Below are positions 2,964 through 56,088 of a stretch of DNA of 64,000 nucleotides, in pieces. Within the stretch, counting starts at the first letter, position 1. Each line of letters begins with the position of its first letter. Location: sequence record NC_028927.1; one strand, written 5' to 3'. Source of the stretch: Escherichia phage slur02. A model generated the notes under the pieces. That model ran no database searches, was not told where the DNA came from, and saw only the letters and a list, made by a program, of their open reading frames with translations. Position numbers and translations under genes: made by a program.

Positions 2964-3502
2964 GTTGATCCCAGCTCCTTACTTTCAACGTTTTTAACTA
3001 ATTTGACAGAAACTAATTCGGCATCTTGGGTAATCATTACCGGGCCTTCTTCATACTCTTCAAGATATTCTAGAGCTTTCTTTTTAGCTTCTTCCTTCGT
3101 ATCAGTTTGAGCATAGATATAAAACATGCAACCACCAGTAATACCTACTACTTTCCACTTAATTTCTTTATCAGTTTTAATTTCAAATTTACTGACAGAA
3201 TCATCTTTTTGAACTTCTTCGAAAAAATAATATTCTGACATATAAGTAATTGAAAATAGCGGGCTATCTTTATAGCATTCGCCCATTACATCAACAGCTT
3301 TATACCAGCAGTCATCAATTTCGCGTTTAATGCTAATAACATTCTTCGCGGGATCAATTTTTACTTTAAATGAATTTTCATCAATAAACTGGGCAATTCG
3401 TTTATTAGCCCCACAAGTTTCATTAAAAATATCTTTATATCCAGCTTTAAAGCGATAAACCTTATCTTCTTCAAACCATTCGCTCATTTTCAATTTCCTC
3501 AT
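2957..3502 (-). CDS. hypothetical protein (181 aa)
   Basis: ORF track; early promoter immediately upstream. Confidence 0.55.
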   Translation of the reverse strand: MRKLKMSEWFEEDKVYRFKAGYKDIFNETCGANKRIAQFIDENSFKVKIDPAKNVISIKREIDDCWYKAVDVMGECYKDSPLFSITYMSEYYFFEEVQKDDSVSKFEIKTDKEIKWKVVGITGGCMFYIYAQTDTKEEAKKKALEYLEEYEEGPVMITQDAELVSVKLVKNVESKELGSTC

Positions 3503-3517
3503 TTGTTTGGTAGAGCT

Positions 3518-3548
3518 ATAATATCACAACTCTACCGTAAAGTAAACT
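3518..3548 (-). promoter_or_regulatory. T4-type early promoter (GTTTAC-N18-TATTAT)
   Basis: Minus-strand reading acaGTTTACtttacggtagagttgtgaTATTATag seen directly (approx coords). Confidence 0.5.
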
Positions 3549-3549
3549 G

Positions 3550-3825
3550 TTAAATTGCTTTGAATTCTGATGTCTGTGATTCAAAGCGAATATCGCCTTT
3601 GATGACTAGCTCAGCATCAAGACCAAATACGACAATGATATGCGCAGAACCTGGATACAGCGTAATGGCAATAGAATCCACCTGGTCTGGAAGCAAAGTG
3701 TTCAATACATGAGTCACTTGAGCATGAATTCGAAGCTCGGCTGCGTTATCAAGCTTTTCAAACATATTATTAGCGATAATTTGGCTAAAAACTACTTCTA
3801 CGATTTTAGAATAAGTCGGAAACAT
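3550..3825 (-). CDS. hypothetical protein (91 aa)
   Basis: ORF track; co-oriented. Confidence 0.5.
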   Translation of the reverse strand: MFPTYSKIVEVVFSQIIANNMFEKLDNAAELRIHAQVTHVLNTLLPDQVDSIAITLYPGSAHIIVVFGLDAELVIKGDIRFESQTSEFKAI

Positions 3826-4028: not shown

Positions 4029-5443
<1,415 letters not shown>

Positions 5444-51208: not shown

Positions 51209-51811
51209 TTATAGATTAAATCCTTCAAAATCAAGAGTATAGATAGTGTATGTTGAATACTTTTTGTATTCATATCTATCTGCAATTCTAAATACACTTC
51301 CAGCTGGTATCATTACTTCTTGTTCATCTGAAACTAATTCCATATTACGATAACGATGACTATCCGGAAACTTAAAGTTTGGATTGTATTCTTTACAACG
51401 TAGAGCTTTTATAGCATACTCCTGGAAATTGAATACCATAGGAGCTTTGAATTCAAAAATAACTTGTGTGTTATATTCTAAACCAGAAGCAAAATGTAGA
51501 GCTATATTTTTATCATATGAAGCTGATACTACTTTATCAAATGTAATAATATCAATTCCTTGATTTAATATTTGTTTAGTCTCAACTGGAACACCTCTCC
51601 AAAGAGGTTTATCGTTTGGAACCAAACGAGATTTGATTATTTCATTTAACCAAGTATGGTCATCTGGCTTATTAGTAATACAATGAATTAAAAGTTCAAT
51701 TTCAGATAAATTAAACCCTTCAGAAAGTAATTCTTCACGAATAGAAGCACGCACCGATGCATCCATTGATTTTATTTTAAAATCTTTTAGTTGCATTACT
51801 GAGTATTTCAT
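51209..51811 (-). CDS. modA: ADP-ribosyltransferase ModA (200 aa)
   Basis: ART R-S-EXE signature (WRGV ... SAS ... EQEVMIP); 200 aa; paralogous to the adjacent ORF. Confidence 0.75.
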   Translation of the reverse strand: MKYSVMQLKDFKIKSMDASVRASIREELLSEGFNLSEIELLIHCITNKPDDHTWLNEIIKSRLVPNDKPLWRGVPVETKQILNQGIDIITFDKVVSASYDKNIALHFASGLEYNTQVIFEFKAPMVFNFQEYAIKALRCKEYNPNFKFPDSHRYRNMELVSDEQEVMIPAGSVFRIADRYEYKKYSTYTIYTLDFEGFNL

Positions 51812-52431
51812 TCAACTACCTCAATATCATAAACTTTAAATGTTCCAAATGAATCGTGTAATTTTTCTTTTGAAATAGAAGTTATTTTATACTTTCCAAT
51901 TGGAATCATCCATTCTTGTTCACGCACAATCATCATTAAGTTATCAGTACGCTCTGAATCTAATCCATCAGTATCTTCATACGTGTACTTAAACTCAGTA
52001 TTAGGAGAAGAAAGTATAATATCGCTGATATGGTCAGAATAATTAAAAGCTTTATTAGTTTTTAAGCGAAGTATTATTTTAGTAAAATATTCAGCGTAAG
52101 AAAAAGAACATGCTGTGAGCAAACTAGTAGTAAATGAATCTACCCTGTTCGTTGAAAACACTTCTCCAACTTGTAAATCTTTAATAAGTTCTTCTGTTGA
52201 TTTTGATATACCACGATATAACTGATAAGGCGATTTAGTTAAATGCTTTTTAATGATTTTATTCAACTGTCTGTGAAGAGCTTCATTCTTTTTGGCTTCC
52301 ATACATTGCCAAAGAACAGACTGCTCAAAGTCAGTAAATTTTTCACAGACCTTTTTATACATATCATATTGAAAATCAACGCTTTCAGCTTTTATAGATA
52401 ACTGTTCAACATCTGCAAGATTAATAATCAT
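51808..52431 (-). CDS. modB: ADP-ribosyltransferase ModB (207 aa)
   Basis: ART signature (YRGIS ... STN ... EQEWMIP); 207 aa. Confidence 0.75.
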   Translation of the reverse strand: MIINLADVEQLSIKAESVDFQYDMYKKVCEKFTDFEQSVLWQCMEAKKNEALHRQLNKIIKKHLTKSPYQLYRGISKSTEELIKDLQVGEVFSTNRVDSFTTSLLTACSFSYAEYFTKIILRLKTNKAFNYSDHISDIILSSPNTEFKYTYEDTDGLDSERTDNLMMIVREQEWMIPIGKYKITSISKEKLHDSFGTFKVYDIEVVE

Positions 52432-52458
52432 GATAGCCTCCGTATACTTCAGAAGCTA

Positions 52459-52487
52459 TCATATCATCGTTAGAAAGGAAAGTAAAC
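52459..52487 (-). promoter_or_regulatory. T4-type early promoter (GTTTAC-N17-TATGAT)
   Basis: Minus-strand aaaGTTGTTTACtttcctttctaacgatgaTATGATag upstream of modB. Confidence 0.5.
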
Positions 52488-52498
52488 AACTTTTTGAA

Positions 52499-52681
52499 TT
52501 ATTTTGCCCAGGGAGCCCAGGGCGGAGGGTCAAGATGGTATGAAGCTAGTTCTTCTAGAAGAGCATCTGGGGCTTCAATTCCATAATTCTGTAATACTAT
52601 ACGGTACTCTTTCTTATAATCACTAGAATCATTCTGGATATTCGTAGAATGATTATCTTCTAACATCTCAAATAAATCCAT
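52499..52681 (-). CDS. hypothetical protein (60 aa)
   Basis: ORF track. Confidence 0.45.
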   Translation of the reverse strand: MDLFEMLEDNHSTNIQNDSSDYKKEYRIVLQNYGIEAPDALLEELASYHLDPPPWAPWAK

Positions 52682-52689
52682 ATTAATTC

Positions 52690-53160
52690 CTAGCGATAAA
52701 AACCAAATTGACGATTAGCTTCAATAATCTTTCTTTCTTCTTCGGACATTCTCCAGCGTAGTCCAACATCAAAATGAGCCCAGACCATCTTAACGAATGC
52801 ATTTATATCTTTAATATCTTCAATAATGAATGTTTTACTTTTAGAAGGTTGACTCGCTAATTTAACTTTATCGTCTTCAAACAGGTCAAAAAGACCATAT
52901 TCATGAGCTCTTTTATAGCCTTTAATAGTTAAAGCTTCAGAAGAAGAAAACGGTGAATCAGTATTCTGCAAAATATCTTCAGTATGCTTTATAATTAGAA
53001 TAACATTTTCTGGGTATTTTCTTTCTTTTATATCTTTAATTAAAATATCCGGATTTTCTGCTAAAGGAATAATTAATGAGCACTTTTTGTCAAGTGTATT
53101 TACTGATTTACCTTCTTTAGACATAAATTCTATTGAATAATGTTTTGCTACTTCAATCAT
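52690..53160 (-). CDS. hypothetical protein (156 aa)
   Basis: ORF track; mrh-region position, unverified. Confidence 0.5.
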
Positions 53161-53313
53161 GTGATTTCCTCTTGCCTACTAATGGGCCGTCAGGAATTTT
53201 GTTTTCCTGGATATATTTCTCATTTTCTTCCATCATTTTACTGCCAATTTTAAGAAGCAAATCCAGTGCTTCATTTGCTTTAGCTTTAGCCTCTTCCAGC
53301 GTCATATCTTTGT

Positions 53314-53517
53314 TCACGATTTATCCCCATAGATGTCTCTCATCAATTTAAGCGCTGAGCGTTCTAATTTCTTTTCTTTCTCAGCACTAATCATTGATTT
53401 CATCCATTCTTCCGATTCGTTCTGCATTTCTTTATTTGCTTGTTCAACCCAACCATCATCAATGTACATTGAGTTTGGTCTATTGAACCATTCAAGCATT
53501 TTCTTCAGAACTTTCAT
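53314..53517 (-). CDS. hypothetical protein (67 aa)
   Basis: ORF track. Confidence 0.45.
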
Positions 53518-53989
53518 TTGTTTTACCTAAAACAACAGTAGGAGCATCATCAAATTCATGAATTTTTAGCAAATTTGGATGTAAACTATTCCATACAGAA
53601 GAAATAAAGTATGATAAAGCATCTTCACTCACAATTATAAATTTATTTCCTTTATCTATTTTCCAGCTATATACTGAATCATACGAATAGAAAGATAAAG
53701 GTTTATCATTATATTGTTCTGCGCTAACATTGATGTATTCGGATTTAGTAAATGCTTCAATTGCTCTAAACGGAATATTTGGTACAGTTTCAATAATTCC
53801 GATCTTTTTAAGTTTTATTTCAGCATCTTCTGGAACTGGCATTGAAACAAAATTTTCTACGAGATACATTGGGTCACAATAACCCTTATCAATCATTACT
53901 GCTACGGTAATTGGAACGTCTTTAGCAAACGACATACTATTACTGCTAATATACATTTCAAACAAAATCGCTTCCATAATTTTCCTCAA
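53492..53989 (-). CDS. hypothetical protein (165 aa)
   Basis: ORF track. Confidence 0.5.
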
Positions 53990-54327
53990 TCACAAGATGT
54001 AGATGAACAACTAGAATCACAAGAATTTCCACATGAATCGCCCGTCAATACATGAACAGGAACATTAGTGTCATATGAATCAGAACTAGACTGTGTATTC
54101 TGCGTATTAGATGATGTAGTAGGTGTTGACCAGCGCCAAGGATTTTTATAATATTCTTGGGCTTCTTCATAAGTCATAGTAACTGCTTCTACTGTTCCAT
54201 CTCCCATATAAACATATTCAACTACAGTTAAAGGAAGATAGTCATTTGAAATAGGAACTACACCTTCTCCAGGAGTCGTAGAGAAAAAATCTTTAAAGAA
54301 ACTTTTAAACCAATTAAAGATAAACAT
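53986..54327 (-). CDS. hypothetical protein (113 aa) with Cys/Ser-rich C-terminal tail
   Basis: Translation ends ...[18 protein letters not shown]. Confidence 0.5.
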
Positions 54328-54533
54328 TACAAAAAGCCTCTTTTGAATTCGACTTGCTTATCGCCATAATCATATCGAATCTCTGCGTTAAATTCAACAG
54401 AACCATCTGCGTACATCATAAATGAATGCACAACAACTTCTGTAGACCATGGTTGCAATTCATATTTCTTCATTACATGCCGTGAAATGATAATATCTAA
54501 ATCTTCATTTGGTTTAATCCAACGATTTAACAT
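54327..54533 (-). CDS. hypothetical protein (68 aa)
   Basis: ORF track. Confidence 0.45.
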   Translation of the reverse strand: MLNRWIKPNEDLDIIISRHVMKKYELQPWSTEVVVHSFMMYADGSVEFNAEIRYDYGDKQVEFKRGFL

Positions 54534-54558
54534 AGTGCTCTCCTCTATAAGATAATTT

Positions 54559-54588
54559 TATTATACCATACTCATTTTGGAAAGTAAA
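54559..54588 (-). promoter_or_regulatory. T4-type early promoter (GTTTAC-N18-TATAAT)
   Basis: Minus-strand ccgGTTTACtttccaaaatgagtatggTATAATaaa immediately after the soc terminator. Confidence 0.55.
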
Positions 54589-54600
54589 CCGGTAAAATGA

Positions 54601-54625
54601 AAAAAGGACTCCCGAAGGAGTCCTT
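54601..54625 (-). terminator. rho-independent terminator after soc (GGACTCC-CGAA-GGAGTCC + T-run)
   Basis: Identical sequence to the hairpin at window positions approx 13-30. Confidence 0.65.
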
Positions 54626-54629
54626 GAAA

Positions 54630-54875
54630 TTATTCACCAGTTACTTTCCACAAATCTTCATTTGCAGCAATCCATTCAGTACGTTGATTTTCTTCATATA
54701 CTGTAGAATACGCTGCTTTTTCTGAAGGGAATGTCTGGTAATGAGCGCCAGAAATTTTGTGAACATCAGAATAAAGAGGGAAAGCTACAGAAATTTCCTT
54801 TCCTTCAATTTTCTTATTTCCATCTAATTTCTGCTCAAATGTTTTGATATTAACATAACCGCGAGTACTAGCCAT
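54630..54875 (-). CDS. soc: Soc small outer capsid protein
   Basis: 81-codon ORF; sequence recalled as T4 Soc (MASTRGYVNIKTFEQKLDGNKKIEGKEISVAFPLY...). Confidence 0.9.
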   Translation of the reverse strand: MASTRGYVNIKTFEQKLDGNKKIEGKEISVAFPLYSDVHKISGAHYQTFPSEKAAYSTVYEENQRTEWIAANEDLWKVTGE

Positions 54876-54891
54876 GTAATTCTCCTTTTAT

Positions 54892-55101
54892 TTAAATTAC
54901 AAGACTATTTATAATAAATTCTTGCGGAACGTTAAAATACCCAATTTTAGTTAATATAACAACATCACCGTTAATAATTACCGGAGAATAATCGGCTGGA
55001 GCATTAAACTTCCAGTGGGCTCTAATATTATATCCATCAGAACCAAATGCTCGACTAGCAGGTCTACCGGCTTTTTGCCATGCATAAAAATCAAATTTCA
55101 T
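54892..55101 (-). CDS. hypothetical protein (69 aa)
   Basis: ORF track; occupies the slot where T4 carries segF. Confidence 0.5.
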   Translation of the reverse strand: MKFDFYAWQKAGRPASRAFGSDGYNIRAHWKFNAPADYSPVIINGDVVILTKIGYFNVPQEFIINSLVI

Positions 55102-55301
55102 TTTGAATGCTCTATAATTAATTTTAAGGCTTCTTCATGCAACCACTTACCTGGTATATGTCCAGTTTTAATTGTGTGAGCTTTGCGGAGCTGATTAGAT
55201 AAGAGCTCACATATGAGCTCTTTGTCATAATTTTTAAATAGCTGGTCAATACGTTTCTTGCGGGCTTTCTTAAGCTGACGTTTATTTAAACGAGCCATCA
55301 A
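55098..55301 (-). CDS. hypothetical basic protein (67 aa)
   Basis: ORF track. Confidence 0.5.
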   Translation of the reverse strand: MMARLNKRQLKKARKKRIDQLFKNYDKELICELLSNQLRKAHTIKTGHIPGKWLHEEALKLIIEHSK

Positions 55302-55816
55302 TAACCTCGGTCTTGACGAGCAAAGTTTTCAGCATTTTTCAGATAATAAAGTTTAAAGATTTCTTCAGCCGTAAGACCGAGACCTTGGAACATGTTCAGA
55401 ACGAAATGAAGAATATCAATCATTTCGAATTTAATTTCCAACTGGTCTTGTGGAGACAAATCAGTAATTAGAGTTTCACGACGTTCACCATGCTGTGACT
55501 TCCAAGGTTTCCATACAGCAGATGCATCTTTTTCACCATTGCTCATACCGCCAAGAGAAGTCAGAAGTTCACGGAATTCATCATCAATGTAATCTTTCTG
55601 ATTACGCAGCCAATCAACAACTTCGCCTGCAGTAGCCAAATCATCAGGATGACGGTTATATTCAGGTTTATCTTTAGCTAAACGAATCTGCAGAGATTTC
55701 TGCATGTCAAGCATTACCTGCAGCGGGTCTTTTTCATCACCGAGAATATCCCAATATTCATTTTGAGCTTTATCAGCGCCTTCAATCAGTTGTGAACATT
55801 CATTAAAATATGCCAT
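55298..55816 (-). CDS. 56: gp56 dCTPase/dUTPase (MazG-like), 171 aa
   Basis: Track ORF trimmed to Met32 (MAYFNECSQL), preceded by AAGGAAAAATA; 171 aa as T4 gp56. Confidence 0.85.
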   Translation of the reverse strand: MAYFNECSQLIEGADKAQNEYWDILGDEKDPLQVMLDMQKSLQIRLAKDKPEYNRHPDDLATAGEVVDWLRNQKDYIDDEFRELLTSLGGMSNGEKDASAVWKPWKSQHGERRETLITDLSPQDQLEIKFEMIDILHFVLNMFQGLGLTAEEIFKLYYLKNAENFARQDRGY

Positions 55817-55887: not shown

Positions 55888-56088
55888 ATGGTACAAAAAT
55901 TAATGGCACTTGTTGATGCCATAAAAGGTAATAAAAAACGTATAGCTTTTACTATTTCTGCTATGGTAGGAATTTTACTCTGGAACTTTATTTTATCACC
56001 TGTTGCAATTGCACATGGTATTAATATTCCAGTAGTTACTCTTGATACATTCGTAGATTTAGCATTTGCTTTAGTTGGGTTAATTTAA
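55888..56088 (+). CDS. small membrane protein candidate (66 aa), plus strand, convergent with gene 61
   Basis: Strong SD AAGGAGG 5 nt before the ATG; two hydrophobic segments; stop codon overlaps the gene 61 stop on the opposite strand. Confidence 0.45.
   Translation: MVQKLMALVDAIKGNKKRIAFTISAMVGILLWNFILSPVAIAHGINIPVVTLDTFVDLAFALVGLI

Follow-up and report, generated by a model that had tools for sequence, protein, structure and literature searches.

What do the small early genes between modB and soc do for a T4-like phage? The question is raised here by Escherichia phage slur02 (sequence record NC_028927.1), from which one stretch of 64,000 nucleotides, hereafter called the window, was analysed. 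In this window the minus-strand interval from modB (51808-52431) to soc (54630-54875) carries a block of co-oriented open reading frames (ORFs), which an initial annotation, made from the letters alone, had described as uncharacterised, promoter-bounded and a reasonable place to look for anti-defence genes. Our analysis identifies the block, almost beyond doubt, as the mrh.2-modA.2 early gene cluster of T4 in a T4-like phage (Tequatrovirus). As to its role, the best explanation overall, to which we give a probability of about 60%, is that of a T4 early unit encoding host-takeover proteins that act by binding. This reading draws on the neighbourhood of ADP-ribosyltransferase and Srd genes kept in nine lineages, on the lack of any enzyme family among the products, and on a largely disordered Mrh.1.

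Identity of the block

The ORF listing gives seven co-oriented minus-strand genes in the interval, and transcription passes through them towards lower coordinates. In this order they are mrh.2 (54327-54533; 68 amino acids, aa), the first gene of the transcription unit; mrh.1 (53986-54327; 113 aa), with an acidic product of isoelectric point (pI) 4.05; mrh (53492-53977; 161 aa from ATG), a member of the MRH family; srh (53314-53517; 67 aa), whose product is helical and which overlaps the 3' end of mrh by 26 nucleotides (nt); modA.4 (53153-53317; 54 aa from GTG, or 50 aa from an internal ATG); modA.3 (52690-53160; 156 aa), again of the MRH family; and modA.2 (52499-52681; 60 aa), acidic as well (pI 4.27) and the last gene before the ADP-ribosyltransferases. 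Six co-oriented ORFs of 60-165 aa had been counted at first, and their orientation and positions stand, but the number becomes seven with modA.4, which is the extra ORF of about 47 aa noticed at approx 53162-53305 and is a real gene. Two start codons deserve a word. The mechanical ORF for mrh (53492-53989; 165 aa) begins with TTG at 53989, while the true start is most likely the ATG at 53977, judging from the GAGGA that precedes it and from the T4 annotation, which agrees. For modA.4, slur02 has GTG where T4 has ATG at the same codon, and the annotators of PP01 took the internal ATG (50 aa).

In both T4 and PP01 the same seven reading frames are named modA.2, modA.3, modA.4, srh, mrh, mrh.1 and mrh.2. 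The corresponding region of T4 (NC_000866 / AF158101, 13198-15232) shares the order, orientation, lengths and overlaps of the genes, and also the flanks, with modB downstream and the soc terminator and an early promoter upstream. Identity to the T4 proteins is 100% for Srh, 98% for ModA.2, 97% for Mrh.2, 96.5% for Mrh.1, 96% for ModA.4, 95% for ModA.3 and 78% for Mrh; with these names and identities, the block is recognised as a known, named part of the T4 genome. The differences from T4 are few: besides the GTG start of modA.4, Mrh of slur02 is another allele, 98-99% identical to those of RB32, teqhal and G4500, and soc.1 and soc.2 stand upstream of soc where T4 has segF. Moreover, positions 52300-54900 of the window are 100% identical in nucleotides to Escherichia phages slur11 (LN881734) and slur13 (LN881737), in whose records all nine features under the match are named 'hypothetical protein', the T4 names not having been carried over. 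Altogether 572 phage records match, at least 80% of the query is covered in 493 of them, and many Tequatrovirus genomes are 97-98% identical. The block is therefore already known and its sequence already deposited, and it is not a new kind of system. Nor are its ORFs simply uncharacterised, being named T4 genes of which mrh and srh have published phenotypes; the description remains apt for ModA.2, ModA.3, ModA.4, Mrh.1 and Mrh.2, so that five of the seven have no assigned function and the block is not a set of core genes with established functions.

All seven ORFs are real coding genes under purifying selection, since the ratio of nonsynonymous to synonymous substitution rates (dN/dS; Nei-Gojobori method, against T4, RB32, teqhal, G4500, PP01 and Lutter) stays within 0-0.35 for each of them, with dS up to 1.6. 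Each protein also falls into a PHROG family (E <=2.4e-31). The products are soluble and mostly acidic (pI 4.05-6.44) with no hydrophobic span, and none of them should be an integral membrane protein, as no 19-residue window rises above 0.92 on the Kyte-Doolittle scale. No enzyme family reached threshold in Pfam or NCBIfam for any of the seven. The base composition of the block, 29-36% GC, is the same as that of the flanks and thus gives no sign of a recent foreign origin. Plus-strand ORFs within the block are all of at most 72 aa, and none is annotated in the related records inspected.

Promoters, terminator and the modB hairpin

How would these genes be expressed? Adjacent genes of the block touch or share 1-26 nt, which fits a single transcription unit, and ribosome-binding sites are found upstream of the gene starts. 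The upstream limit of the unit is a predicted intrinsic terminator after soc (54604-54625, minus strand) with a 9-bp stem, a UUCG loop and a T-run; in the region, 12 terminator-like sites were found against 2.0 expected. Fifteen bases downstream of this terminator lies a candidate early (sigma-70) promoter (54560-54589, minus strand) of the form GTTTACT-17-TATAAT with a TG extension, and a second one (52458-52487, minus strand; GTTTACT-17-TATGAT) lies between modA.2 and modB, that is downstream of the block. Both fit the early-promoter consensus with A/T-rich sequence upstream, and both belong to the 15 sites of the pattern GTTTAC-N17/18-TAnnAT in the 64-kb window. Every one of these 15 is on the minus strand; chance would give 0.54, and no shuffled sequence had more than 3. 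A generic sigma-70 promoter scan, on the other hand, showed no enrichment in the region (29 sites vs 24 expected). The -35 and -10 elements of the modB-proximal promoter recur in nine phages that represent six or more genera; promoters and terminator are annotated at equivalent places in the record of phage Lutter, and the same terminator is annotated in that of phage G4500. From these positions we infer that the promoter at 54560-54589 drives mrh.2 through modA.2, while the one at 52458-52487 would drive modB and modA. The picture of a promoter-bounded block with a soc-proximal promoter/terminator cassette is thus borne out by the match of both sites to the T4-type motif. The early promoter proposed at approx 52459-52487 exists as a site as well, but its sense is different, for it lies downstream of the block, where it would serve modB and modA, and does not drive the block itself.

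The full series of candidate early promoters on the minus strand of the window is located at 3518, 15907, 16635, 19936, 20464, 31372, 33837, 36978, 37703, 42199, 46482, 47490, 52458, 54560 and 58588. An Rfam scan of the whole window matched no RNA family.

At the downstream end of the block an RNA hairpin is predicted at 52429-52463 on the minus strand, where it overlaps the start of modB (52431); in it the -10 region of the modB promoter pairs with the modB Shine-Dalgarno sequence and ATG. Its folding free energy is -20.8 kcal/mol (z-score -5.1), none of 200 shuffled sequences folds equally well, and nine phages from several genera share a 12-pair consensus helix in which two pairs show compensatory changes. 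Because the transcript from the modB promoter itself lacks the 5' arm, only read-through RNA from the block promoter would be closed for modB translation, which would make the closing of the modB ribosome-binding site promoter-dependent. Differential translation via promoter-dependent RNA hairpins is described for T4 genes such as e, soc and 49, and the modB element is like these in that its ribosome-binding site can pair with sequence present only in transcripts from an upstream promoter. We found no report of such a control for modB.

Conservation and variation of the interval

The interval had been regarded as a variable accessory region of T-even phages, with comparative genomics proposed as the check, and the comparison gives a divided answer. 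Within Tequatrovirus the gene content is fixed: all seven genes are found in six of the six genomes inspected (T4, PP01, Lutter, RB32, teqhal and G4500), and the variation is allelic, affecting Mrh and Mrh.2. For instance, Mrh.2 is 60% identical to its RB32 counterpart and 97-98% identical to the others, and soc and gene 56, on the flanks, vary in the same way. Between genera, six of the seven families come up again elsewhere in the Tevenvirinae, and soc and the ADP-ribosyltransferase are separated by anything from 2 to 7 genes. There are six in Dhakavirus, which is without mrh; six in Mosigvirus, with a ModA.4-like gene after ModA.2; four in Gelderlandvirus, namely a likely Mrh.2 relative, Srh, MRH and ModA.2; three in Jiaodavirus; and two in Roskildevirus. 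In Kanagawavirus and an unclassified Klebsiella phage, MRH and ModA.2 are preceded by genes likely to be Mrh.2- and Srh-like, judged from position and weak alignment. The 3' end is the constant part: an MRH-family protein (about 135-170 aa), ModA.2, zero or one small ORF, an ADP-ribosyltransferase and srd occur in nine of nine lineages (eight named genera), with ModA.3 as the MRH copy common to all lineages examined, and it is the upstream genes that shift. A tblastn search with the seven concatenated proteins reached 961 phage records, the most distant of which keep only ModA.2.

What stands of the accessory character is the dispensability and the varying gene number between genera. The block lies within the 39-56 region of T4, which is deletable and as a whole dispensable (PMC6070864), and mrh.2 has been used in T4 as a non-essential target of clustered regularly interspaced short palindromic repeats (CRISPR), giving viable deletions of 35-526 bp (PMC8262927). 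What does not stand is a variable gene content within Tequatrovirus, in view of the seven genes in every genome inspected and the coverage in 493 of the 572 records.

By comparison of gene order, the local hotspots of gene content are the soc-56 and 56-61 intervals and not the block. The soc-56 interval of slur02 (54892-55301, minus strand) holds soc.1 and soc.2, of 69 and 67 aa, at the place of segF in T4 and of nothing in RB32. Between gene 56 and gene 61, a hydrophobic ORF of 66 aa (55888-56088, plus strand) is encoded against the direction of every adjacent gene. The records of RB32 (ORF030w, 'similar to RB69ORF029w'), teqhal, IME281, O157 typing phage 3, and Klebsiella and Proteus phages annotate a counterpart of about 65 aa in the same place, likewise on the opposite strand. 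The slur02 ORF is probably a real, conserved small membrane protein. As a further observation, a 91-bp stretch is duplicated in RB32 where mrh meets srh (positions 4523-4639 of the stretch compared); this yields a 38-aa chimera of the Srh N-terminus and the Mrh C-terminus, annotated there as 'possible partial duplication of srh'.

Protein families of the block

Mrh and ModA.3 both match the Pfam family PF24070 (T4_MRH; gathering score 24.4 bits) over nearly the full 144-position profile, with 146.6 bits (E 5.8e-43) and 131.7 bits (E 2.3e-38) respectively, and so they are paralogues, though only about 20% identical; both belong to phrog_1234 as well (E 8.7e-62 and 2.3e-53). An exhaustive search with the MRH profile among 1.84 billion representative proteins returned only 20 matches at E <=1e-3. 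The AlphaFold2 (AF2) model of MRH, built on a 19-sequence alignment, has a mean predicted local distance difference test score (pLDDT) of 66.7 and a predicted template modelling score (pTM) of 0.67, and shows a mixed alpha/beta fold with a disordered C-terminus; with this model, a search of BFVD returned orthologues from T4-like phages of Enterobacterales only. As far as these searches go, the MRH family is confined to T4-like phages, and its predicted fold has no detectable relatives outside them. When produced recombinantly, Mrh is reported to be soluble and to behave as an assembly of megadalton size (PMC8076793).

Mrh.1 matches DUF7206 (PF23836; gathering score 25.6 bits) with 98.3 bits (E 4.9e-28) over residues 4-113, and belongs to phrog_2031; its main T4-type cluster comprises 515 sequences. 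Residues Y40, G42, D43, G44, E47 and V49 are invariant in the family and form a YxGDGxxExV core, and the N-terminus can be drawn as a short amphipathic helix, with a hydrophobic moment of 0.54-0.61 in the T4 and Dhakavirus types. The AF2 model (pLDDT 57, pTM 0.25) places helices at 4-15, 53-61 and 63-66, a beta-hairpin at 34-52 and disorder from 67 to 113, so that a disordered Ser-rich linker is predicted between a small beta-hairpin core and a C-terminal Cys motif.

Among the smaller members, Mrh.2 belongs to phrog_1873 (E 1.5e-36) with dN/dS of 0.04-0.07. Its likely relatives, assigned by annotation position at 16-27% identity, come first or second after soc in Gelderlandvirus, Kanagawavirus and the Klebsiella phage, and W5, K7, P8, H36, E51 and F63 are invariant in the alignment. 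ModA.4 (phrog_2681) has a conserved C-terminal IPDGPLVGK(R/L)K and orthologues in Dhakavirus, Mosigvirus and Jiaodavirus, and ModA.2 (phrog_1647) has an acidic DLF-type N-terminus in most of nine phages. A sequence search of the PDB gave no match for Mrh, Mrh.1 or Srh, and the profiles of ModA.2, Srh and Mrh.2 gave best PDB matches at E 0.07-0.6, which is chance level. Profile search and structure prediction, which had been proposed as checks for each ORF, have thus led to no solved relative of the proteins searched by sequence or profile, to orthologues only for the MRH model, and to a mostly disordered model for Mrh.1.

In GenBank, the label 'molybdenum ABC transporter / periplasmic molybdenum-binding protein ModA' is attached to ModA.2, ModA.3 and ModA.4 in many phage entries, and one record names srh 'S-ribosylhomocysteinase'. 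Such labels are apparently gene-name collisions spread by annotation pipelines, as Pfam shows no such domain.

Proposed role of the cluster

In the reading that we prefer, the early sigma-70 promoter right after the soc terminator would transcribe the seven packed genes from mrh.2 to modA.2, and transcription would continue into modB and modA, a pair also served by a separate early promoter. The products, having neither a transmembrane segment nor a recognisable catalytic domain, would be small soluble binders of host proteins and not catalysts. Together with the ADP-ribosyltransferases and Srd, the cassette might then retune the transcription and heat-shock apparatus of the host, that is RNA polymerase, sigma-32, chaperones and proteases. 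Genetics from T4 agrees with such a direction, as given in papers that cite the original studies: mrh and srh are described there to affect the expression of late genes as well as growth, both at 42 C and in rpoH mutants (Frazier & Mosig 1990, Mosig et al. 1998, via PMC6070864, PMC8076793), and mrh is described genetically as 'modulates rpoH' (PMC6070864, PMC8076793). For mrh the phenotype is that of the T4 allele only.

A possible link to a host target is that of Srh, which belongs to the Srh family by sequence (phrog_2441, E 6.4e-41) and is annotated as a postulated decoy of sigma-32. It resembles Srd, the postulated sigma-70/sigma-S decoy encoded just past modA, and factors of the AsiA type in being small, early and thought to interfere with host sigma factors. 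Against residues 244-279 of E. coli sigma-32, within region 4.2, 12 of 38 residues are identical (32%; BLASTP E 7e-4). In Smith-Waterman alignment with sigma-32 the T4 type reaches z 5.2, its score being attained by none of 1000 shuffles, and the Dhakavirus type beats 997 of 1000.

Several points weigh against the takeover reading. The resemblance of Srh to sigma-32 is weak and not family-wide, since the orthologues of Mosigvirus and of a Proteus phage score z of about 0 and the profile of the Srh family against RpoH gives a probability of 0.24%; the label of a sigma-32 decoy thus rests on a lineage-restricted local similarity and on genetics, and not on a feature of the family. Searchable literature yielded no binding data on competition of Srh with sigma-32 for RNA polymerase core, DnaK/J or FtsH. 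Moreover, what is known of two genes is extended here to seven, five of which are without phenotype. The 3.3 Å cryo-electron microscopy structure of Mrh is mentioned as 'data not shown' (PMC8076793), and no PDB entry matches it. Promoters and terminator are called from pattern matches together with conservation and not from mapped RNA ends, and the conserved gene order could stem from shared transcription instead of shared function. Takeover by binding, as the mechanism of the cassette as a whole, is put by us somewhat below an even chance.

Alternative explanations

Among the alternatives, the one that survives best, though we regard it as unlikely, is that some of the small early proteins inhibit or decoy host anti-phage systems, in which case their dispensability would reflect laboratory strains without those systems. 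The proteins are indeed early, small, acidic and non-essential, and five have no assigned function. Mrh in particular is rich in alleles, with 100 full-length clusters at 90% identity (pairwise identity median 0.90, minimum 0.73), many more than ModA.3 or Mrh.1, and against 96-99% among the 11 ModA.3 representatives listed; no gene of the block has a higher dN/dS against T4 than mrh (0.35). However, this value lies between two allele types and is below 1, and the diversity of Mrh suggests recombination between these two types. The gene content is conserved and not shuffled, within Tequatrovirus as well as across genera. Searchable literature gave no link of the seven genes to defence systems and, for modA.2, modA.3, modA.4 and mrh.1, nothing on function at all; the searches made found none of the seven proteins to resemble a described inhibitor in sequence or structure, or to have a counter-defence phenotype in print. 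The PADLOC models, which cover defence and not anti-defence systems, matched the seven proteins only with an 11-bit BrxC fragment for Mrh.2, which is noise. The suggestion that the block is a reasonable place for anti-defence genes has thus gained no support from the literature or from the defence models, anti-defence models not being part of the scan.

Mosaic alleles are also seen around the block. Mrh is 78% and gp56 (55298-55816) 74% identical to T4, with neighbours at 95-100%, and both are 98-99% identical to RB32. On the side of counter-defence, a dmd homologue (antitoxin-like) is annotated in Klebsiella phage kv_tblp5 (positions 3422-3613 of the stretch compared) between the ADP-ribosyltransferase and srd, while dmd of T4 sits elsewhere; a known counter-defence gene at this place means that such genes can move into the neighbourhood.

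Next comes, with a chance that we also consider small, an accessory module of the ADP-ribosyltransferases, in which ModA.3 and ModA.2, possibly with ModA.4, would act as adaptor, regulator or antidote, or binder of modified substrates of ModA/ModB. It takes its appeal from the arrangement found in nine of nine lineages, where an MRH protein and ModA.2 stand just upstream of the transferase with at most one small ORF between, while the genes further upstream come and go. No other protein of the block is detected as widely by tblastn as ModA.2, whose C-terminal DPPPWxPW is invariant in nine phages (D51, P52-54, W55, P57 and W58). As modA expressed alone is reported to impair the growth of E. coli (PMC6070864), a modulator would make sense. 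The top PDB match of the ModA.2 profile is trigger factor residues 51-72, and the T4 annotation lists trigger factor as a ModB substrate, but the match is at chance level (E 0.6) and not significant. The modB gene has its own promoter, and with the hairpin predicted to close its ribosome-binding site on read-through mRNA, its expression would be separate from that of the block and not coupled to it. A macrodomain or another recognisable ADP-ribose-related fold was considered for MRH, and the predicted structure matched no such fold, whether for binding or for hydrolysing ADP-ribose. Finally, a fixed gene order is common along the whole early region, where srd, dda.1 and dda are equally fixed.

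A third explanation concerns Mrh.1 alone and is compatible with the others: the protein may be a precursor of a modified peptide, or metal- or redox-active, with a functional Ser/Cys tail that serves as a core like that of ribosomally synthesised and post-translationally modified peptides (RiPPs), or as a metal-binding or disulfide motif. The Cys/Ser-rich tail of 16 residues noticed at first is the C-terminus of this 113-aa protein, and comparison of the homologues makes it a genuine family-wide signature. In 94 cluster representatives the C-terminus has SCD in 82 and [SG]C[DEN] in 88, the motif ...YDSGSCDSxxxSCD is conserved with its two Cys kept at no less than 90%, and Mrh.1 of the T4 type has a duplicated tail motif with four Cys. 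The slur02 protein has both the YxGDGxxExV core and the SC(D)SxxxSC[DE] end. Yet the special chemistry seems to us quite improbable, for the cytoplasm is reducing and the confidence of the AF2 model is low in the tail. As for a lanthipeptide precursor, the match to the FxLD family (NCBIfam TIGR04363) has 15 bits (E 0.018), half of the curated 30-bit cut-off, and is probably compositional; the candidate was rejected. T4-type phages are not known to encode a lanthionine synthetase, a cyclodehydratase or a maturase of the radical S-adenosylmethionine type, and from soc to srd, the part of the window scanned for this purpose, all genes are accounted for and none is a maturase gene.

The idea that certain ORFs of this dispensable region are spurious or in decay, to which the short length of four genes (54-68 aa), the GTG start of modA.4 and the deletable region might lend some colour, is refuted for practical purposes by the PHROG matches of all seven, their orthologues in other genera, the ribosome-binding sites before their starts, and dN/dS well below 1 at substantial dS.

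Significance

What is new here is comparative only, namely the conserved string of MRH, ModA.2 and transferase, two short motifs, the narrow distribution and orphan fold of MRH, and the weak basis of the 'sigma-32 decoy' label. As a discovery the block carries little weight, and its value is that of a pointer to five T4 genes that have been without assigned function since the first sequencing of T4. All seven are under purifying selection, and most of the families persist in genera infecting Escherichia, Klebsiella, Proteus, Enterobacter and Erwinia. The check also reveals how widespread the 'molybdenum ABC transporter' mislabelling is in databases. As handles for testing, there are the fixed MRH-ModA.2-transferase neighbourhood, the DPPPWxPW and SCDSxxxSCD motifs, and the allelic diversity of Mrh. 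It is conceivable, though in our opinion unlikely, that MRH (ModA.3), ModA.2 and the transferase make up a functional module throughout the Tevenvirinae, directing, restraining or complementing the transferase, or that Mrh or Mrh.1 is an undescribed counter-defence or host-mimic factor; if either were true, T4 genes that have been 'hypothetical' for 30 years would gain a mechanism.

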